The translations under genes and the position numbers were made by a program. This document shows positions 1,092 through 26,962 of a stretch of 42,267 bases of DNA, piece after piece. The notes under the pieces are model-generated. The model saw only the letters and a program-made list of their open reading frames with translations, searched no databases and had not been told where the DNA came from. Source of the DNA: a virus (taxonomy: Duplodnaviria > Caudoviricetes); the IMG/VR virus record IMGVR_UViG_3300017565_000010, positions 1 to 42,267 of that record. The stretch is one strand, 5' to 3'. Numbering within the stretch: position 1 is the first letter of the stretch; the number at the start of each line of letters is the position of its first letter.

Positions 1092-3494
1092 ATGGCCCTT
1101 GTTAACTTGCCTCGCCCGCTCATCGTCGACATCAATGGCGAGCCCCTCGTGGGCGCGCGGATGTTCGTCTATGACGCAGGGACGAACAACATCCGCATCG
1201 CGTACCGTGGACCAGATTACACCATCGAGCACGAGCAGCCCATCCAATCGACGGAAGGAGGCTTGTTTCCGGCAGTCTATGTTGACCCGTCGGAAGGTCA
1301 CTACAAGCTGGTCATCCAGAACGCCGACGGCGTCGGCATCTATACCGAGGACATGCTTGAGCCGGGCCCGGCCTTGTACGAGGTCACCGAGGCTGAATCG
1401 TCGAGCTCCGTCGTTCCGGCCGACCTGAGGGCGCCTCCGTATACGCCGAACCGTTACCGAATCAACGAAACGCCCGGTACTACCGACATGGCGGCCGCGA
1501 TTCAGACGGCAAATGATGTAGCGGCGCTCGCGGGGGCGGCCTTGCGGTTCATGCCGGAGGTCTACTCAGTAGACATTGCCGCGCGTGGCGGGAGCTCGCT
1601 ATCGCAAACGGCGGACTGGGTCGGCGAAGGGCGGACCATCATCCGTCGCAAGGACTTCACCACGACCGTTGCCTCGTTCACGGTGCAGCAGACGGGTCAG
1701 ACGGGACTGCGGCTCTCGGGAATCACGTTCGACGGCCAGGTGACCAAGGCCGGAAGCACAAGTCCGAATGTCGATCTGGGTGCGGCCGGCTCCTACGCCG
1801 ACACCACGAATGAGGAGCTTTGGACCAAGCCCTACGGCGTGCGCCTGTGGAATGCCACGCGCGCTATCGTAGAGAACTGCACGTTTATGAACTTCCTGCG
1901 CGCTGGCCTCTTCATCGAAGGAGACGGGCTCGCCACGGGGATCTCTCAGGATGTGAAGGTCAGCAACAGCACCGTTCGCCGCACTCGAAGCGGTTCTGGT
2001 GGTGATGCGTTCTACGTTGGCGGCGCAACAGACGTGAAGTTCGTCAACTGCCACGTATACGACTATCAGCGGATCGGCTTCTGCTGCGAGTTCGCACGGA
2101 CCGATTCGTCGACCAACTGCCGCGATCTCGAGTTCACGAACTGCACCGCGGACTTTGGTCATGACGTTGTCGCACCGGAGAGCAACTGCGGGTTCTGGGT
2201 TGAGTCGGGCGATAACGTCAAATACGTAAACTGCACCTCCAAGAACACTGGCGTCGGATTCGTCTGCAACGCAGGAAGCAACAGCGATACCGGTACGACC
2301 CGGCCGTTCGCTGCATCCATCGGCTACATGAATTGCGTGTCACTGCGCTCCAAGGTCGCCATGCGACTCGGATTCGGCGGTACGCGTAGCACTCATGTCG
2401 TCGTATCAGGCTTCCAGGGTGAGGCGGATCGGCTAAACCCTGCTGCTGCGGGAGAGAGTCTCGGCCTGCGAGCCGGCATCCTGATTCAGGCGCAGGAAGT
2501 CGCTACGGGCGTCAATTTCCGCTTCGATCTGCGCGACGTTTCGATCACGTGCCTCAATCAGTCGACAGGCTCGGCCTCCAACGGCTTCGGCGCGATTCGC
2601 GTAGCGCAGGGCACTGTGACAGCCCCTCAGCAGCTAGTGATCAACCTCGACGGCCTGCAGACGCTCTGGAAGCTCGCAAACGGCAACGATGACGTGTCAG
2701 CCAAGACGGATTATCAGAGCGCAACAAATGGCTACTTCGGCGACGTGGTGTTTTCCGGCGCCGCGGATACGACTCCGGACGGCCGCTACAAGGGCCACGC
2801 GACCCTGTCGAACCTCCACAATCACACGTTCGGCTACGCGATGGTGTCGACCGAGATTTTCTCGACGTCGGCGAACTTCACGGTCACGAAGAGCCGGCTG
2901 TGCATGCGCAAGGCGAGCGTGGCCAATAACGGCGCGCTGACGATCGCGGACTGCCCGCTGGTTGATTTCCGGGGTGATGTGGGCTGGACAAAGATCCAGA
3001 TCGACAACTCCACTGTGGCTGACGCCGACGCGGCGAGCACGGACCGGACAGCGATCAGCGCGGGGCTCACCATGCTGAACAACTGCCATGTGCTTCGGCA
3101 GGTCCACATCAATGCCAACGGTGGGGATACGAGTCACCGGAAATTGCGCCTTGTGGCATCTGGAAACGTCTTCGATATTCCGTTCGACACCGAGCCGGCG
3201 CTGAGATTGACGCTCGCGGATAGCACCTTCGCGCATGCCAACCTGAGCGGCAACGTGTTTAGAAACGTAGGCACCGGCAACACCGACACGACGGACTCCA
3301 TGATTCTCGTGTCGACGGCTACCGGAGTCATGCAGTTCAGCGGCGCCGGGAACGCGTTTGACAACGCCGCGGTGTCCGATGGTGCACATGTCGTGCAGTA
3401 CAACTCATCCCCAACGTACAACGACGCCCCCGGAACGATAGCGACTCCATTCCTCAGCGTGATCGGAGCGCTCGCGGCCTTTGATCCAATCTGA
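1092..3494 (+). CDS. Tailspike / polysaccharide depolymerase (N-terminal particle-binding domain plus right-handed beta-helix)
   Basis: N-terminus DINGEPLVGARMFVYDAGT typical of podovirus tailspike attachment domains; DMAAAIQTA...LRLSGITFDG and repeated N/C beta-helix rungs. Confidence 0.85.
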   Translation: MALVNLPRPLIVDINGEPLVGARMFVYDAGTNNIRIAYRGPDYTIEHEQPIQSTEGGLFPAVYVDPSEGHYKLVIQNADGVGIYTEDMLEPGPALYEVTEAESSSSVVPADLRAPPYTPNRYRINETPGTTDMAAAIQTANDVAALAGAALRFMPEVYSVDIAARGGSSLSQTADWVGEGRTIIRRKDFTTTVASFTVQQTGQTGLRLSGITFDGQVTKAGSTSPNVDLGAAGSYADTTNEELWTKPYGVRLWNATRAIVENCTFMNFLRAGLFIEGDGLATGISQDVKVSNSTVRRTRSGSGGDAFYVGGATDVKFVNCHVYDYQRIGFCCEFARTDSSTNCRDLEFTNCTADFGHDVVAPESNCGFWVESGDNVKYVNCTSKNTGVGFVCNAGSNSDTGTTRPFAASIGYMNCVSLRSKVAMRLGFGGTRSTHVVVSGFQGEADRLNPAAAGESLGLRAGILIQAQEVATGVNFRFDLRDVSITCLNQSTGSASNGFGAIRVAQGTVTAPQQLVINLDGLQTLWKLANGNDDVSAKTDYQSATNGYFGDVVFSGAADTTPDGRYKGHATLSNLHNHTFGYAMVSTEIFSTSANFTVTKSRLCMRKASVANNGALTIADCPLVDFRGDVGWTKIQIDNSTVADADAASTDRTAISAGLTMLNNCHVLRQVHINANGGDTSHRKLRLVASGNVFDIPFDTEPALRLTLADSTFAHANLSGNVFRNVGTGNTDTTDSMILVSTATGVMQFSGAGNAFDNAAVSDGAHVVQYNSSPTYNDAPGTIATPFLSVIGALAAFDPI

Positions 3495-5118: not shown

Positions 5119-5621
5119 CATTCCTTTTACGCGTCTGGCCGCACTTGCTGATCGGCGCAGCCATCCTCGCTGCTGGCGTGTACATCAACAGACTCGGATA
5201 CGAGTCCGGCTACAACGCTTCTGAGTCAAAATGGCGTCCAGCATTTGATGCCGCCAACAAAGCCTTGGGCGAGGCCAACGAACGGACCAGACAGAAGGAC
5301 ATAGCAAGCAGGGAGCTATCGCAGAAGGCAGAGGTCGAACATGCTCAGACACTTCAAGCCCTCCAGGTTCGTGCTGCTGACGCTGATCGCCGTGTCAGTC
5401 AGCTCATGCGCAACCACGCCAAGCGTGCCAGTAGTTGCGAACTGCCCGCAGTTCCCGGAACCACCCCCATCGCTGATGAAGCCAGCCAGTTCCTCGAACG
5501 CAGTGAGCGATTTGGAGCTGATCTTGTCGCACTGGCTCGTCGGTGCGAAGAAGATGCCGCCGCCCTGACGTCACTTCAGGATTGGGTCAGGGAGCAGCAA
5601 GCTCTCGAACATCCACCCTGA
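5115..5621 (+). CDS. i-spanin (Rz-like)
   Basis: N-terminal TM, long coiled coil, two Cys near the C-terminus; contains a nested lipoprotein ORF. Confidence 0.85.
   Translation: MTFLLRVWPHLLIGAAILAAGVYINRLGYESGYNASESKWRPAFDAANKALGEANERTRQKDIASRELSQKAEVEHAQTLQALQVRAADADRRVSQLMRNHAKRASSCELPAVPGTTPIADEASQFLERSERFGADLVALARRCEEDAAALTSLQDWVREQQALEHPP
5341..5568 (+). CDS. o-spanin (Rz1-like lipoprotein), nested in Rz
   Basis: Signal peptide with lipobox VSSC, Pro-rich CPQFPEPPPSLM; embedded in alternate frame. Confidence 0.85.
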   Translation: MLRHFKPSRFVLLTLIAVSVSSCATTPSVPVVANCPQFPEPPPSLMKPASSSNAVSDLELILSHWLVGAKKMPPP

Positions 5622-6507
5622 TGTCCCGGCCCTCGTCATCCGTCTTAATCGCCTTCGTGATCGAATCGAGCTGGTTGTACTTCGGGTGCTCCAGCAGGTG
5701 ACACCAGTACATCCGCTCCCACGTTCCTGAGCGGTGCGTGTCCGGCACGTAGTGGTGTAGCCCGTAGATCGGCGCAAGCTTGCGCTTCGGCTGCTCGTTG
5801 AACTCGGCAATGGCGAGTCTTACGCCCGCAAACTCGCTGTAGCTCTGCCCCATGATGTCGTCCATGTAGCAGGGCACGCGCGGCAGGATCTTCTCGTAGT
5901 CGGCCCGAAGGACCGTAAACGCGTCCTTGGTGGCGGAGTATAGGTCCAGATCGAACGAGACGAAGCCCACCGGCGCGTGACGCTCGGCGATCCAGGCGTG
6001 CACCGTTTCTTCAACCCATCCCACCCGCAGCTCCGCCGTCGTCAGCTTGTTACGCACCTCCTGAGGATCGTGCGTGAGCTGCCCGGCAAACCACATGTTC
6101 GGCTGGTCGCGGTAGTCCTGCGGCGGAGAAAGACCCGCACCGGAATCGAAGCCAACCACCTCGATACGAACCCCAGTCATCTTCTGCGTGAGCATGCTGA
6201 TGCGCTCGAGCGCCAGCAGCCCATTCCCACCCGCCACACCGAACTCCAGCGCACTCATCGCCGGGTAGCCCAATGCACGTGCGAGAGCAGCGCCCTGCAC
6301 GACACCCCACGCGTATTCGGCTTTGCGCCGGCACACCGGATCGTCCATCAGTTGGCTGAAGGCGTACCGGAGCCATGCGTAATTGTTGTCGAACGGCGCT
6401 GGCGGCACCGGTTGGAATTCGCTTTCCCGAATCCACGCCCCGAGTCGGCGTGCCAGCGGGTAGATGACGCGGTTTCGGACTGCTGCTTTGATCCCTGTCG
6501 AACTCAT
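5587..6507 (-). CDS. TylF/MycF-like SAM-dependent O-methyltransferase (moron)
   Basis: Motifs EFGVAGG, GFDSGAGL, SFDLDLYSAT, MDD; strong GGGGGAG RBS; opposite strand to the late operon. Confidence 0.75.
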   Translation of the reverse strand: MSSTGIKAAVRNRVIYPLARRLGAWIRESEFQPVPPAPFDNNYAWLRYAFSQLMDDPVCRRKAEYAWGVVQGAALARALGYPAMSALEFGVAGGNGLLALERISMLTQKMTGVRIEVVGFDSGAGLSPPQDYRDQPNMWFAGQLTHDPQEVRNKLTTAELRVGWVEETVHAWIAERHAPVGFVSFDLDLYSATKDAFTVLRADYEKILPRVPCYMDDIMGQSYSEFAGVRLAIAEFNEQPKRKLAPIYGLHHYVPDTHRSGTWERMYWCHLLEHPKYNQLDSITKAIKTDDEGRDIRVDVRELAAP

Positions 6508-19091: not shown

Positions 19092-19310
19092 ATGGAGCGA
19101 CCAGAGCAAATAGTCCGAGACCTTCGTCGGCGTGCCAACGCTTTGTTAAACCGGAAAAAAGTCAAACGCGAGCAGCTCGCGTATGAGTCCGGTCTCACTT
19201 ACTCGTGGCTTTGCAAGTTTCTCGCGGAGCACGAGGACGCGTCGAATCCGCGCGTGAATACCCTCGTGAAACTCGAAAAGCGTCTAAGCGAACTGGAGAG
19301 GCTGCAGTGA
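19092..19310 (+). CDS. cro: Cro-like HTH regulator
   Basis: REQLAYESGLTYSWLCKF...NPRVNTLVKL; divergent from repressor. Confidence 0.8.
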   Translation: MERPEQIVRDLRRRANALLNRKKVKREQLAYESGLTYSWLCKFLAEHEDASNPRVNTLVKLEKRLSELERLQ

Positions 19311-19674
19311 CAGCCTCTTTTTGGGCCTCGCGGGACCAGACCTCGTGTAACGCCTTGAGGAAGAAGTCCGCTGGGAATCGCTCGGGCATTTGCGATCACT
19401 CCGTGAATCAGACACGTGATAGCCGTGCCCGTCCATTGGCGTCGCGCACTTCCTTCCGGGAGACGTACTCCGGAGCCTCGGCGGTTGCGCTGTTCTTATC
19501 TGCAGTCGGCTATCAGAACGTAACACAGGTTAGACCGGAGTTGGCCTCAAAAAAGTGCAACTCCATTTCGCAGACGCGGCGCGCAAACCTTGATCCACTG
19601 CTGCATCACTGCGATTTATCTCACCCGCTGTTCACACGACCGTATGCCGGCCATAACTGGACGCCGGATAACGG

Positions 19675-19923
19675 ATGCATTTGTGCTTCAAGCACATGGA
19701 GCGTGGCGTGATCCGCTGGCCGTTCACAGTGCGGCTAGATCACTGCGCGGTGAGCATCACGGTATCGCGCCCCGGAACGTCGCGATCGTCCGCTGAAACG
19801 TCTCATGCGGTTGCGGATTCGCCGCAACCATTGTCTCGAATGCTTCTCTCAGTCGATCAGGCTGTGGGTGCGTGGCGAGCACAGCAGAAATTGCTGTCGC
19901 ATACGCCTGGAGCAGTGCTGTGA
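19675..19923 (+). CDS. Hypothetical protein (uncertain)
   Basis: Most plausible forward ORF in the cII slot; no recognisable motif. Confidence 0.3.
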   Translation: MHLCFKHMERGVIRWPFTVRLDHCAVSITVSRPGTSRSSAETSHAVADSPQPLSRMLLSVDQAVGAWRAQQKLLSHTPGAVL

Positions 19924-20085
19924 GCTGGTCGTCCATTGTTTTCTCCCGTCGCGCCCTGGCCGATGTTTGGCGACTGATGGCCGGGGCTGCGACGCCAATC
20001 CTAATTCGGCGGAACCCGCGGGCGCTATTGACGCGCTCCCTGCACTGACTTCGCTCGGGCAGGCCGCCGTTCCTTTGGAGGCTCT

Positions 20086-20283
20086 GTGACCCAAGCGGAC
20101 CAGATCCTGAATCACCTTCGATCCGGCAAGCACATCACGCCGCTGGAAGCGCTGAACCGCTTCGGGTGTTTCAGATTGTGCGCACGTATCTACGACCTGA
20201 AGAAGGCCGGACACGAGATCGAATCGCAGATGGTGACGCTGCCGAATGGCAAGCAAGTCGCGAGCTATCGGCTAGCTGAATGA
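20086..20283 (+). CDS. Small winged-helix protein
   Basis: TQADQILNHL..GKHITPLEAL..FGCFRL.ARIYDLK..GH; GGAGG RBS. Confidence 0.85.
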   Translation: MTQADQILNHLRSGKHITPLEALNRFGCFRLCARIYDLKKAGHEIESQMVTLPNGKQVASYRLAE

Positions 20284-20318
20284 AAAACGCCCCGGTGGTG
20301 GAAGTCCATCCGGGGCGT
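20284..20318 (-). terminator. Intrinsic terminator for an antisense (leftward) transcript
   Basis: ACGCCCCGG/CCGGGGCGT 9-bp stem with an A-run on its left, i.e. a U-tail on the minus strand. Confidence 0.55.
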
Positions 20319-20520
20319 CTTGGTTCATCGGGGCGAAGTTACAGCGCAACTATGAACTTAGTTTGATCGGGCTTCAAGGCCTCATGCGTCGAGGCCGGAA
20401 ACGGATAGGCGCAGCTCGCTGGGGGCTTGTATCCCGGGGCGAGTCGAAACAAGCCCGGGAGGTCGCCCCTCCATCCTCTGCGCCCATGCGTGGGGGGAGG
20501 GGGGGTCATGCCTCCCAGGA
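20284..20520 (+). ncRNA. Candidate structured RNA / replication origin with G6AG7 tract
   Basis: Consecutive stems GTTCAT/ATGAAC, GGCCTC/GAGGCC, GGCGCAG/CTGCGCC enclosing GGGCTTGT/ACAAGCCC, then GGGGGGAGGGGGGG at 20492-20505. Confidence 0.45.
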
Positions 20521-20663
20521 TCTTCGGAGTCGAGGTAGCCGAGCAGGCAGCAAGGTATCTCGCTCCATGCAAAGCGATCGGGGTTCGCGAGGATAAGTCG
20601 GAGAAGTTGTTCCATGTTCGTGACCACGCAAGCATTTTACGCGCCTGCGGAGGCTGAGCGGTA

Positions 20664-21071
20664 ATGGTTATTAGACACAGCTATCAACCGATGCACCCGC
20701 CTCAGAAGCAGGTCAGCCAGGAGCGCATGCATGAGATCCTGGCCAGACGCTCCGGCAAAGCGCAGTCGCCGCAGGCGAAAGCAGACGCTGATGTCTGGCC
20801 GAAAGCGCCTCATGAAACCCGCCTGCCTCCAACTCCTCCCCGCGCAACCGGCCCGCTTCAGTGGCAGAAGCCAGCGGCTGGATCGATGGGCGTCAGGACC
20901 GTGTGTGAGTGGTACTCGTGCTGTAAGGCGATGGTCGATGGCGAGTGGGAATACGAGGTTTGGACTCGCGAGCCGCTGACGGGCGGGATGAAGCAGTTAG
21001 CCGTGGGGCTGGCGAGTTTCGAAGACGGGAAACGAGTCGCACAGGAAGATGCGGACAGGGCTCTGCGATGA
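20664..21071 (+). CDS. Hypothetical protein
   Basis: GGAGG upstream; ATGA coupling to rusA. Confidence 0.65.
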   Translation: MVIRHSYQPMHPPQKQVSQERMHEILARRSGKAQSPQAKADADVWPKAPHETRLPPTPPRATGPLQWQKPAAGSMGVRTVCEWYSCCKAMVDGEWEYEVWTREPLTGGMKQLAVGLASFEDGKRVAQEDADRALR

Positions 21072-21421
21072 TCGAACTGACCATCCCCGAGGCCACACCT
21101 TCGCTAAACCGCATGCTCGGCCATCATTGGAAGAACAAGCACGACTTGCGAAAGCACTGGGGATGGCTGGTGAGAGCGGCTCGGCTCAACGCGAAGATCT
21201 ATCCGAAGGCGCCGCTCCCAAAAGCGAAGGTCACCATCACGCGTCACGGTCGGCGAATCTGTGACACCGACAATCTGATCGGTGGCCAAAAGATACTGAT
21301 CGACTCGCTGGTCAAAGAGGGCATCCTGGAAAACGATACGCCCGATCACGTCGAACTGATCGTGAAGCAGATCGTGACGAAGACACCGCACACCGTAGTG
21401 CAAATCGAGCAAATCACATGA
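21068..21421 (+). CDS. rusA: RusA-like Holliday junction resolvase
   Basis: PSLN...DTDNL..GQK.LIDSL...GILEND acidic catalytic pattern. Confidence 0.85.
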   Translation: MIELTIPEATPSLNRMLGHHWKNKHDLRKHWGWLVRAARLNAKIYPKAPLPKAKVTITRHGRRICDTDNLIGGQKILIDSLVKEGILENDTPDHVELIVKQIVTKTPHTVVQIEQIT

Positions 21422-22728: not shown

Positions 22729-23045
22729 AGACCATCAATATCACGTGGGATGTCCCGGTAACCCGCGAGGATGGCAAGGCTCTGCCGAAAGCCGAGATCG
22801 CGGATACGGAGGTATCGCTGGCGCCGGTCGCCGCTGATGGCACCGTAGGCTCGTTTACGAGTCTCGCGAAGGTAAAGCCCGACGCGACGCAGACCGTGAA
22901 CAAGGACGTGCCGGACGGTGATTACAAGATCCGGTTCGTCGTCACCGACATCTACGGACAGAAGGGCAAGCCGCTCGACGCATCTGCGACAGTGAAGTCC
23001 GCGCCGCCGGGTCAGGTTCTGAACATAAAGGTCACGGTGGCGTGA
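22725..23045 (+). CDS. Stand-alone, circularly permuted FN3-like protein, 106 aa
   Basis: ITWDVP (strand B), YKIRFVVTD (strand F), C-terminal APPGQVLNIKV (strand A-like). Confidence 0.75.
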   Translation: MKTINITWDVPVTREDGKALPKAEIADTEVSLAPVAADGTVGSFTSLAKVKPDATQTVNKDVPDGDYKIRFVVTDIYGQKGKPLDASATVKSAPPGQVLNIKVTVA

Positions 23046-26000
23046 GTTCACTTCTCCGGATCGTCTTCGATCCGGACCTGACCCCGACTGGTGTCCCATC
23101 GATCACCAGCGTCACCGTCGTCTCTCAAAGCCGTCTCGATGTCGCGTGGACTTCGGTTACGGACAACGCAGGTGGCTCGGGGCTTGCGGGCTACAACCTG
23201 ATCATCGACGGTGGCGCGCCGCTCGAGCTGGGCATCCAGACGAGCTATTCGCTCACGGGTCTCGGGTCAAACACCACGCACACGTTCCGTGTCGCGGGCC
23301 GTGATCAGGCCGGCAACGTCTCGGCCTACAGCGCGCAGTCGCAGGCGACTACCCTGTCTGCACCAGCGCCGTTCAACCCGCTGTACCCGCGACTCGGGTC
23401 GTACGCGATCGGTGGCCAAAAGAACTATCAGGACGCTGCAGTAAAGGCCGCTCTCTCCAAGCGGCACGTCAATTTCCTGTCGCCATTTCTCGGCTGGGAG
23501 AACAGCCGCGGGACCACGTTCACTGCAGTCACGCAGGACATCAAGGCGCAGTCGACGATTGGCACGCAGATCTACGTCTATGTCATCACCAGCAGCCTTT
23601 ACAGGGCCGCCGCGGCGACAAATCAAGCGTATTGGGACCCGTACAACTGGCTCGTCACGAACAAGGGTTTCGGCTACAGCAACGGCCTGAGCGAGATCGG
23701 GGTGATGATCTCGGCGGCGGATGCCTCTCAGGATCAGGCGAACTACCGCCTCACGGGCAAAGTCGTCAACGGCAAGCGGTACTACGAGTACCTGATCGAT
23801 TTCAGTCTGGACGTACACCGGGATGGCGTGCCGAGGAGCAACGGCACGAGCCTGATCAGCACCGCAGCGAACCCATTCCTCGACGGATTCTTTGTCGACA
23901 ACGTGTTCTGCAAGGAGCGCACGGCGGCCGACTACGACCGCAACGGTTCCCCGGACGCGATCGATACGATCGCCGATGCCAACGCGACGATGAACTCGCA
24001 CGTCGCAATGATGAGCTATCTGCGTAGTCGGGCGCCTACCTGGAAGGTAATGGTCAACTCCGCCGACTGGCGCGAGTACGAGACGGCATATGGATTCGGC
24101 TCGTTCAGCAATGCCCCGCTGAACCAGAAGGCCGAAGGCGGCGCCATCGAATCCATCGAGAACTACGAGTCGCTGGCCTACAGCTCGGTGATCAGCGCCA
24201 TCAAGACTCAGATGGACGCGTATTTACCGCCGAAGTTGGGCGTCCTCGGTTGGAAGATCGCATCGTTCACCGACTACGCGGGCATGCGTTACGGGTTCGG
24301 CACAGCGCTGCTGACGGACACGTACTACTACCCGTTGGTGGGCACGTACCGCTCGGAAGACCTTCCGAGTCTGTGGTACGACGAATTCAACTTCGATCTG
24401 GGCGCGGCAATCGATCCGGTCCAGACGGTCGCCCGGTATCAGTCTGCAACGCTCGGCGAGGGCGTCTGGCGTCGTGACTTTGCGAACGGCATCGTTCTTG
24501 TAGGCGCACGTCGCGCCAGCGGGGCGACGACGGCCTATTCGCCGGTCAGCCTCGGCGGCACGTTCTACCGCCTCGTAGGCACCCAGGCACCGGCCGTCAA
24601 CAGCGGTGTGGCCGTCACTAGCGTGACGCTCTCACCGCGTGACGCGATTGTGCTGGCTCGCGTCCCGCAGGTTGGAGCCGGGATCTTCCCGCTCACCATC
24701 GACAGCGGCGGGCGCTTCATCAGGGACAACACGGGCGCGCCGTTCCTGATCCATGGCGATACTCCGTGGTCGCTTGCGGTCCAGCTCACCCGCACGCAAA
24801 TCGACACGTACCTGAACGATCGGCAGTCGAAGGGATTCAACACCGTTCTCTTCAACGCCATCGAGCACTTTTTCAGCGCCAACTCTCCCGCGTACCGAAA
24901 CCGGGAGGGCAACGACCCGTTCTCGCCGATGACGAATTTCGCCGCGCCAAACGAGGCGTACTGGCAACTGGTCGACTACATCGTGGTGGGCTGTCTGGCC
25001 CGCAACATGATCGCGCTGATCAACCCGGCCTATTTGGGGTTCGGCGGCGGCTCAGAAGGCTGGAACACAGAGGTACAGGCCGAGACCGCCGCAGACCTAC
25101 AGGCTTACGGCACGTTCCTCGCCAACCGCTACAGCGGCTACGGAAATGTCATCTGGTGCATGGGCGGCGACTACGCAGGTACCAGCGGCGAGCGTACCAA
25201 GCAGTGGAATATCGTTACCGGCATCCGCACGGTCGACACTGATGCGATCATCACCGCGCACGGAGCTCGCACTGAGAGCGCCTATAGCCAGTGGAGCAGT
25301 TTCCGCGGCTCAGGCTTCAATTTAAACAACATCTACACGAACGGTACTGAGTACACGTTCGCGGCGACCGAGTACGCACGTTCGCCGGCAATGCCGTTCA
25401 TCGAGTTCGAGGGCTACTACGACGACGCAAGAGGCGGCACTCCGCCGGCAACTCCTGCGGACTGCCGCCGTCAGGCCTACGCGTCGATCCTGTCGGGCGC
25501 CTGCGGCCATCTATTTGGCAACTTCCCTGTCTGGGACTTCGGATCGCCTGCAGCGGGCGGTTCGGGCGGTGGTGTCACCGCGGCGCTGACTAACCTCAGC
25601 ACGACCGCGACGAATCAGATGGCGTACGTGAAGGCTCTCTTCACGGCGTTCAACTGGCAGCTGCTGCAGCCTCGTACTGACACGAGCGTCGTCACTACGA
25701 GCCTGGGATCGGGAGCGACGCGAATCGTCGCAGCTCGAGCCAGCGATGGCTCATTCGTGATGATCTGGACGACGGGCAACGGATTTACCGTCAACCTGAA
25801 TTCCCTGTCGGTCTCCTCGATCCGTGCGCGGTGGTACAACACAACCGATGGCACCTACGCGACTGCCGGCACGTTCTCGAACGTGGGCACGCAAGCGTTC
25901 TCACCGCCGGGTGAGAGAGTGTTGGTGCTCGATCAGTCCGCGTCCGTGGGCGGCTTCACCTTTGACAGCGGATTTTCAGCGGGCTCCGGGAGCTCGTTCG

Positions 26001-26962
26001 CTGATGGCGGCACCGCCACGATCCTTTCGTCCGGCTCAGTGTTCGGTTCGAAACCGAACGGCTCGAAACCTGCTTGGTATTGGAACCCCGGCAAGTCTGC
26101 CTCGACGGCACTTGATTCGAACAGCCGAAACACTGCGTGGGCGGTAGACCCTGACAGCAGCGTCAACGGCCCACAGTATGGATCAATCACCGCCAATCAG
26201 TTGGTGACCGGCTCCGTAGCCGCTTACGAGATCAACTGGAACACGGCGGGTCGGCAGGCAACCATTCAAGGAATGGCGTTGCCGAACGCCACGGACTGGT
26301 ACCTCTTCAGCAAGTGGCGCACCAACTTCAACATGGCCGACGCGTTCCCGCTCGCGGGGAACCTGTTAGACGGCCAGGCGAACATGAAGGGGTGGCGCAT
26401 CTGGAATACGGGCTTCACGCACGACATGGTCACCGGGTTCGGCGACGATGACGCGCGCGACAAGCACGTAAAGTTATATGAGAACACAGACAACGGCACC
26501 GCATTTGAGGTGCATGGCGTTGGGCTGCCGAAGAATATCTGGCTCACTGATGAGATCCAGCAGCATCAGGGCGACGTCGGCGTAGCGAACGCGGTCACGC
26601 GGATCTTCGAGCAAGGCAAGCTTCAGGCGACCTACACGAACGTATCGCGCCGTTCGCCATCGTGGACCGCGCTCTATGCGCGTTTCTACGGCCACCAGAA
26701 AGAGCGCATGAACACGCTGTCGTCGTGGCGCATCTGGTACGACATTCTCTATCTCGACGACTCATGGTGCCGCGTCGTAGTCACGGATCAAGCGACGTGG
26801 AGCACGGCGTCCACTCGCGGCATGGAAGTCCAGATCCCGACCGCATGGGCTGCCGGTTCCATCACCTTTGTGTGCCGTCGCGGTGCTCTGACTCTCGCTG
26901 GCAAATACCTGTACGTGGTTCGCAGCGATGGCACCGCCGTCCGCGTCGGCCAGTTCACTTAG
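23042..26962 (+). CDS. 1306-aa multidomain carbohydrate-active virion protein: FN3, GHL15-like TIM barrel, DUF4038/GH140 apiosidase-like with collagen-binding-type domain, lectin/lyase-like C-terminus
   Basis: FN3 (AW..VTDN..GY...FRVAGRD); DGFFVDN and VWRRDF.NGIVLV; PFLIHGDTPW, RQSKGFN, NVIWCMGGD, E.YY, RARWYN. Confidence 0.75.
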   Translation: MSSLLRIVFDPDLTPTGVPSITSVTVVSQSRLDVAWTSVTDNAGGSGLAGYNLIIDGGAPLELGIQTSYSLTGLGSNTTHTFRVAGRDQAGNVSAYSAQSQATTLSAPAPFNPLYPRLGSYAIGGQKNYQDAAVKAALSKRHVNFLSPFLGWENSRGTTFTAVTQDIKAQSTIGTQIYVYVITSSLYRAAAATNQAYWDPYNWLVTNKGFGYSNGLSEIGVMISAADASQDQANYRLTGKVVNGKRYYEYLIDFSLDVHRDGVPRSNGTSLISTAANPFLDGFFVDNVFCKERTAADYDRNGSPDAIDTIADANATMNSHVAMMSYLRSRAPTWKVMVNSADWREYETAYGFGSFSNAPLNQKAEGGAIESIENYESLAYSSVISAIKTQMDAYLPPKLGVLGWKIASFTDYAGMRYGFGTALLTDTYYYPLVGTYRSEDLPSLWYDEFNFDLGAAIDPVQTVARYQSATLGEGVWRRDFANGIVLVGARRASGATTAYSPVSLGGTFYRLVGTQAPAVNSGVAVTSVTLSPRDAIVLARVPQVGAGIFPLTIDSGGRFIRDNTGAPFLIHGDTPWSLAVQLTRTQIDTYLNDRQSKGFNTVLFNAIEHFFSANSPAYRNREGNDPFSPMTNFAAPNEAYWQLVDYIVVGCLARNMIALINPAYLGFGGGSEGWNTEVQAETAADLQAYGTFLANRYSGYGNVIWCMGGDYAGTSGERTKQWNIVTGIRTVDTDAIITAHGARTESAYSQWSSFRGSGFNLNNIYTNGTEYTFAATEYARSPAMPFIEFEGYYDDARGGTPPATPADCRRQAYASILSGACGHLFGNFPVWDFGSPAAGGSGGGVTAALTNLSTTATNQMAYVKALFTAFNWQLLQPRTDTSVVTTSLGSGATRIVAARASDGSFVMIWTTGNGFTVNLNSLSVSSIRARWYNTTDGTYATAGTFSNVGTQAFSPPGERVLVLDQSASVGGFTFDSGFSAGSGSSFADGGTATILSSGSVFGSKPNGSKPAWYWNPGKSASTALDSNSRNTAWAVDPDSSVNGPQYGSITANQLVTGSVAAYEINWNTAGRQATIQGMALPNATDWYLFSKWRTNFNMADAFPLAGNLLDGQANMKGWRIWNTGFTHDMVTGFGDDDARDKHVKLYENTDNGTAFEVHGVGLPKNIWLTDEIQQHQGDVGVANAVTRIFEQGKLQATYTNVSRRSPSWTALYARFYGHQKERMNTLSSWRIWYDILYLDDSWCRVVVTDQATWSTASTRGMEVQIPTAWAAGSITFVCRRGALTLAGKYLYVVRSDGTAVRVGQFT

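Follow-up and report, generated by a model that had tools for sequence, protein, structure and literature searches.

The stretch of DNA analysed here (the window; 42,267 nucleotides) is the circular genome of a temperate podophage from soil. The completeness claimed for it in a first-pass annotation is borne out by a 123-nt terminal repeat, by its IMG/VR class (DTR, 100% complete) and by a single Logan contig which, at 42,175 nt, is as long as the circle, spans the compared stretch in one piece and may come from the source sample. Matches to PHROGs profiles identify an integrase, an excisionase, a RecT-like annealing protein, NinB, CI-like and Cro-like regulators and RusA, together with terminase, portal, capsid, ejection and lysis genes; no N-type antiterminator is recognised with PHROGs and the tRNA search returned none. 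A base is likely missing in error from the window after position 19961, where all three covering assemblies carry one extra G; restoring it opens no long ORF, and a replication protein masked by a frameshift was rejected. Elsewhere in the genome, a 306-aa methyltransferase-like moron (5587-6507, minus strand) has the lysis genes on one side and the integrase on the other, and a 1306-aa protein without a PHROG match (23042-26962), the start of which we take from its resemblance to be a fibronectin-III-like stretch, is probably a tail adhesin or depolymerase.

No initiator, helicase or loader, primase or polymerase is recognisable in this complete temperate genome, in agreement with the first-pass annotation. 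Replication families are absent from the PHROGs profile search, which covered 108 of the window's 256 ORFs of at least 60 aa, and from the searches of 14 window ORFs in Pfam and 30 in NCBIfam, and tblastn of 14 control replication proteins against the window gave no match. Controls came up without exception in the profile searches, on which the call rests and which a small divergent initiator could escape. The same state, hereafter Rep-less, is found in three relatives (L001/G001, L162/G003 and L163/G004). No replication family is matched by the long ORFs scanned from their early and unassigned regions (21 of 98 in G001, 32 of 90 in G003 and 31 of 76 in G004), tblastn of the 14 control proteins against their whole genomes yields a single match, of 36 aa in G004 (E 0.005), and a whole-genome search with an HMM built on the initiator C-terminal domain yields none. 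All four Rep-less genomes measure 41-53 kb and have intact packaging modules; G003 is of class DTR but rated 45% complete, and G004 is linear and rated 100%. NinB/Orf is present in all four, and a RecT-like gene in the window, G001 and G003, none being found in G004. As separate observations, the profile search places two tyrosine integrase genes side by side in G001 (L030, 5429-6577 and 6738-7646), and a 547-aa gene near the integrase of G003 (L168, 9513-11153, minus strand) matches phrog_850 'RNA-binding protein'; its product may be a Ro60/TROVE protein.

The interval of interest lies between an HTH_39 winged-helix gene and a RusA-like resolvase gene (Table 1). Among 16 loci with HTH_39 relatives, a full initiator directly downstream is confirmed in five, which are the ones scanned (L002-L005 and L015), and downstream of the HTH_39 relative in an annotated Sulfitobacter phage lies a DUF1376 gene. 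The corresponding slot is filled by an O-primase-helicase in L020, which has the same Q-like gene as the window, by O and a P-position gene in L021, and by a helicase-primase with a Betaproteobacteria-1 RNA in L060. The HTH_39 loci with initiators and the gene content of L020 and L021 identify the window interval as the replication slot, confirming its placement at the O/P position. Extra small plus-strand ORFs, one zinc-ribbon-like and one of 95 aa, separate the folded element from the 20664 gene in the L163 slot and in L162 (3059-3346), and show that the slot is modular.

Table 1. Features of the replication slot of the window and of its borders.
Feature	Position	Strand	Remarks
HTH_39 winged-helix gene	20086..20283	+	PF14090, E 8e-17; marks slot start
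Terminator-like hairpin and A-run, oop/tO-like	20283..20321	-	pair probability 0.86-0.99
GTTCAT/ATGAAC hairpin	20322..20358	+	pair probability ~0.8
Sigma70-like promoter candidate, TTGAAG-17-CATAGT	20349..20377	-	putative, leftward; 8/12 consensus, below cut-off
Multi-helix domain with G5 run and GA/AA-capped hairpin at 20437-20456	20362..20456	+	MFE
Unannotated small-protein gene, 77 aa	20382..20615	-	core of ~30 aa, M..L..LL..P......PC; GTGG RBS 20627-20624
Alternative helix GGCGCAG/CTGCGCC, nascent RNA	20408..20484	+	excludes the G-tract hairpin
Long hairpin with G6AG7 tract (20492-20505) as 3' arm	20457..20516	+	folding; partner 20466-20479, including several G-U pairs
49-aa ORF, shadow of the antisense gene	20508..20657	+	not conserved; TAG stops in L001 and L163
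Accessory gene, 135 aa	20664..21071	+	N-terminal helix and small beta-sheet/helix domain; not an initiator
RusA-like resolvase	21068..21421	+	PHROGs, Pfam; right border of slot

Both genes that flank the interval on its own strand had been considered as potential divergent initiators, and neither is likely to be one. The HTH_39 gene adjoins full initiators in the five loci above and is absent from G003. The C-terminal domain of the 20664 product follows O/P in L021 and the Betaproteobacteria-1 RNA in L060; its N-terminal helix is found in all four Rep-less phages, which were chosen by that search, and is missing in L021 and L060. In the predicted model (pLDDT 86) the protein has no match in the PDB and resembles neither a winged helix nor an ATPase, and its viral structural matches are uncharacterised phage proteins of 60-90 aa. 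The family counts ~130 matches among 50%-cluster representatives, a part of which is low-complexity noise, and its profile matched none of 300 genomes from one class. A fusion of the 20664 domain to a replication protein was rejected, no longer form occurring among 7998 candidates, which is weak evidence.

All motifs named in the first-pass annotation are where it had placed them, and the slot holds a strongly folded plus-strand element, as it had proposed. Positions 20284-20520 fold on the plus strand with a z of -5.0, none of 200 shuffles being as stable (minus strand, z -3.8), and have the lowest z of 29 segments sampled (-4.7, the next being -3.0). The plus strands of the three other Rep-less slots reach z values of -2.1, -2.7 and -5.0, so that all four beat shuffles. 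The description of the interval as non-coding applies to its folded 5' part; the 3' third carries a conserved minus-strand ORF. Of the hairpins described, GTTCAT/ATGAAC forms in the full-length ensemble and GGCCTC/GAGGCC has a pair probability of ~0. The helix GGCGCAG/CTGCGCC, which was thought to close a multibranch domain, has a probability of ~1 in an RNA ending at 20491, before synthesis of the G-tract, 0.04 at 20497 and 0 beyond, and ~0 at full length. Since it exists only ahead of the G-tract and is lost after the first G run, what had been described is the nascent intermediate of a two-state fold.

Conservation of the folded element is limited to short words. Besides a similar first hairpin, the four slots have only words of 15-20 nt in common, and only the alignments of the window with L162 and with L163 score above shuffles, along 15-20 nt; a 15-nt word (20439-20453) is common to the window and L162 with one mismatch, a score reached by 2 of 300 shuffles. 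As almost no sequence is alignable across the four folded regions, no common structure is derivable for covariation testing. Scanning with a 19-mer pattern retrieved L001 alone among viral contigs and seven matches among genome contigs that show no likeness to the element beyond the motif, three of them viewed in context. A gapped pattern retrieved L001 and five unrelated loci, the WTREPL pattern scan gave no match, a metagenome scan of 15 of 64 parts gave one locus, and the leads of an ESM Atlas search were all under 0.9. The window element belongs to no Rfam family and has no similarity by blastn to any of 72,556 plasmids. The window contains neither O nor an iteron array, the components of a lambda-type origin, and no perfect DnaA box anywhere, let alone a cluster. 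Two perfect DnaA boxes occur in the L162 slot only, in tandem (3424-3444), overlapping the start and RBS of the antisense gene. The extremes of cumulative GC skew in the window do not coincide with the slot.

In the full-length ensemble the G6AG7 tract is paired, 12 of its 13 G having a probability of being unpaired of at most 0.01 and one of 0.05, and forcing it open costs ~24 kcal/mol. Owing to G-U pairs, the plus-strand form of the G-tract hairpins exceeds the minus-strand form in stability by 14-16 kcal/mol. On emergence from the polymerase the tract is predicted to be free because the nascent fold occupies some of the strand it pairs with. The window genome has no other such tract, and the sole tract of G003 likewise lies in its slot; of 200 shuffles of the window, 7 produce a G5+NG5+ tract. 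In L162 the hairpin carries G6TTTG6, L001 has one that lacks a G-run and L163 has none, which leaves a G-tract hairpin in two of the four phages and the expected conservation across slots of the same synteny unsupported. Read on the minus strand, the window tract also specifies the PPSP residues within the variable tail of the antisense protein; the L162 tract falls outside the antisense gene.

In mitochondrial CSB II a single A separates two runs of G on the transcribed strand, and the first-pass annotation had likened the G-tract to CSB II. Unlike CSB II as presented in the available part of PMC3488243, the window tract is paired in a hairpin and is not conserved. A strict version of the model, in which G6AG7 anchors a primer through an RNA-DNA hybrid G-quadruplex, would benefit from the singularity of the tract in the window and in G003, from its exposure on emergence and from the double occurrence of a G6 word in L162. 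It is nevertheless highly improbable: the tract is absent from L001 and L163, it is paired at equilibrium and free only in the nascent fold, the hairpin is favoured by the energy given above, and such a tract lies downstream of one in 96 Betaproteobacteria-1 loci. The G-run would be an optional aid and not a defining feature of an origin. The observations of the earlier reading are thus partly confirmed and its interpretation partly supported, the mitochondrial-type anchor being poorly supported.

The strand opposite the folded element carries a small-protein gene that had escaped annotation. The best-conserved block of the interval (20525-20615) aligns without gaps between the window, L001 and L163, with an E of 7.5e-18 to G004. 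In the minus-strand frame, differences at the three codon positions number 5/4/15 against L163 and 11/6/16 against L001; among the six frames it is the one with the most identical codons (13 of 27), and no stop interrupts it in any of the three sequences, in which the start codon and an upstream GTGG are also present. With a conserved start, an RBS, an open frame and third-position bias, 20615-20382 on the minus strand behaves as protein-coding, and the strongest conservation of the interval is explained by coding. Homologues extend to L162, and hence to all four Rep-less slots, and a fifth is found in L060 (HMM E 1.6e-11 among 21,595 frames). The antisense protein has no homologue among database entries; in our own reading, N-terminal extensions of database proteins P0009, P0019, P0026 and P0037 appear to run through similar DNA. 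A two-sequence comparison had suggested a conserved RNA or ssDNA structure at 20525-20640, which folds no better than shuffles; this reading was dropped in view of the minus-strand coding in L163 and L162. The 49-aa ORF on the plus strand, raised by the first-pass annotation as a rival conserved unit for which the G-tract would be the RBS, is interrupted by stops in two relatives.

The antisense-oriented, terminator-like hairpin noted at the start of the slot forms in the full-length ensemble, and a similar first hairpin opens the slot in all four phages; it is missing from the list of a consensus terminator scan. L163 has the same -35 and spacing as the leftward promoter candidate of the window, with GATAGT as -10, and no candidate is seen in L001 or L162. 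With a putative promoter in two of the four phages and the terminator-like hairpin in four, an antisense RNA of ~60 nt, running from promoter to hairpin, is a plausible candidate on the sequence, as had been supposed.

A motif elsewhere among phages offers a parallel. The Betaproteobacteria-1 RNA (RF02932) reportedly goes back to one published study; the main text of PMC5737381 does not name it. Its Rfam covariance model has no match up to E 5 in window 19300-20700, nor do an nhmmer profile or a purpose-built model match the window slot, and the L001 slot gives weak matches (E 0.13 and E 0.08). The window not being a member, evidence from this motif is analogy only. A core-pattern search retrieved 120 viral loci (L032-L151, IMG/VR) of ~270 estimated, in which the motif is longer than the Rfam model, has compensatory changes in 11 of 23 pairs and follows a Cro-like gene; two pseudoknots are apparent by eye. 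It occupies a replication slot without a full initiator. Among 37 loci with 2.5 kb on each side, 13 encode only the initiator C-terminal domain (114-145 aa), 15 an SF2 helicase/primase, two a T7-type primase-helicase and seven nothing of the kind; a full initiator is found in none of the 37 (79 cluster representatives were scanned, those below 120 aa in part). In the cultured phage AP1 (OM049504, 11907-12045) the RNA stands directly behind helicase and primase genes, and in L060 the antisense gene, the 20664 domain and a rusA-like gene accompany it. Within the RNA, a loop and the 3' tail make up a direct repeat that co-varies, with 9.0 of 11 matches within genomes against 6.9 +/- 0.1 across them, counted on the 79 distinct parsed sequences of the 120 loci with relatedness ignored. 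Such a repeat fits pairing with the template strand and parallels the G-loop pairing of ColE1. Both the window element and the Betaproteobacteria-1 RNA are folded, lie on the plus strand and follow Cro in the replication slot of initiator-less temperate phages; the window element has neither the invariant core nor the loop-tail repeat, and the Betaproteobacteria-1 RNA has no G-tract hairpin.

The window phage and its three relatives form a real initiator-free group, whose O/P slot holds an uncatalogued folded element together with a hidden antisense gene. We tentatively favour, at somewhat less than an even chance, a model in which the folded plus strand at 20322-20520 would act in cis as an RNA-primed origin run by host enzymes. 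On release of the repressor, the early rightward transcript would pass through the folded element; the nascent fold would let the G-run exit the polymerase unpaired, and the G-run may remain bound to the template as an R-loop. Host RNase H, Pol I and restart of the PriA type could then convert this R-loop into a fork, as in ColE1 (PMC5043065, available part). The process might be damped when the RNA adopts the long G-tract hairpin or pairs with the candidate ~60-nt oop-like antisense RNA. The model is favoured by the Rep-less state of the window and its relatives in searches that detect the controls, by the initiator modules of sister slots, by folding in all four slots, by the Betaproteobacteria-1 analogy, by the G-U-based stability of the plus strand and by the plasmid and mycobacteriophage precedents. 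It is weakened by the scarcity of alignable sequence, by a G-tract that is present in two of four slots, paired and part of an ORF tail, by the fact that the interval's strongest conservation is that of a coding sequence, and by the lack of plasmid similarity.

RNA-primed origins are documented for the plasmids ColE1 (PMC5043065) and MRB (PMC3035462) and for plasmid-like mycobacterial prophages (PMC7157519), as far as the available parts of these sources go. ColE1 RNA II/RNA I, as described in the accessible text of PMC5043065, shares with the window the absence of an initiator protein, a folded sense RNA and G-runs, and its short antisense RNA with a terminator has a candidate counterpart there; it differs in size (550 nt against ~200 nt) and in serving a plasmid rather than a lytic phage; neither Rfam RNAI nor blastn against the plasmid set points to homology. 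MRB plasmids of Vibrionaceae have a protein-free region of ~500 bp, a 68-nt antisense RNA with a consensus promoter and a longer sense RNA (PMC3035462, in part), an arrangement like that proposed for the window, with no sequence similarity. In cluster A mycobacteriophage prophages without RepA, an RNA-based origin in a non-coding transcribed region maintains a plasmid prophage beside parABS (PMC7157519, in part), whereas the window phage has an integrase and its element would serve lytic replication. Lambda has a short leftward antisense RNA from pO between an early regulator gene and the O position, OOP RNA, comparable to the candidate RNA of the window but a regulator acting on mRNA decay and not an origin; unlike the window, lambda keeps O, P and iterons (PMC3640518, in the sections available).

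The element might instead be a regulatory leader, that is, a cis-acting antiterminator, processing site or translation switch with oop-like antisense control, replication starting elsewhere, for example from recombination D-loops through the RecT-like, NinB/Orf and RusA proteins and host restart. The terminator and leftward promoter reproduce the lambda pO/oop geometry (PMC3640518, in part), no N-type antiterminator is recognised, two exclusive folds suit a switch, and the recombination genes recur (RecT-like in three of the four genomes, NinB/Orf in all). Such a leader is all the same unlikely, because it does not explain why these elements sit where O is absent, as with the 37 loci devoid of a full initiator, and a D-loop start sits poorly with G004, which shows no RecT-like gene. 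We consider quite unlikely a DNA-level origin read by a small phage protein (the antisense peptide, the N-terminus of the 20664 product or HTH_39) or by host DnaA, with subsequent loading of host DnaB: there is no iteron array, the window has no perfect DnaA box, the antisense gene also stands beside the helicase-primase module of L060, and HTH_39 is missing in G003. What speaks for it is the antisense gene in all four Rep-less slots, the DnaA boxes of L162 and the 20664 N-terminal helix, which is common to the four phages selected by it and missing from L021 and L060.

Lysogens often carry several prophages, so that an initiator and a loader could be borrowed from a co-resident one; GC-rich intergenic phage DNA often folds, and the little sequence conserved among the slots would also suit a structured scar of O/P loss with no role in replication. 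Either is improbable, given that the same state recurs in four genomes, each 41-53 kb long and intact in its packaging modules, with no remnant of O or P detectable by tblastn or HMM, and no iterons for the O protein of a helper to bind.

Whether the RNA-primed origin extends further is more doubtful. Integrating lambdoid phages may include a broad class in which interchangeable folded RNAs (the window element, Betaproteobacteria-1 and others) have taken the place of O/P and would prime lytic replication by pairing with their own template, the window phage being the extreme case with no replication protein and a co-transcriptional fold switch around a G-run. An open-access text search returned no paper on an RNA-primed origin serving the lytic growth of an integrating lambdoid phage. 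An origin of this kind, if real, would account for the multiplication of many uncultured phages 'without replication genes', suggest a function for the orphan family RF02932 and offer compact new replicons. Independently of the origin, the hidden antisense small-protein family mimics RNA conservation and can mislead the search for motifs. A second small antisense gene lies in the early region of the window (19757-19936, minus strand); its product matches no family, and it is conserved in G004 with 38% identity over 50 aa.
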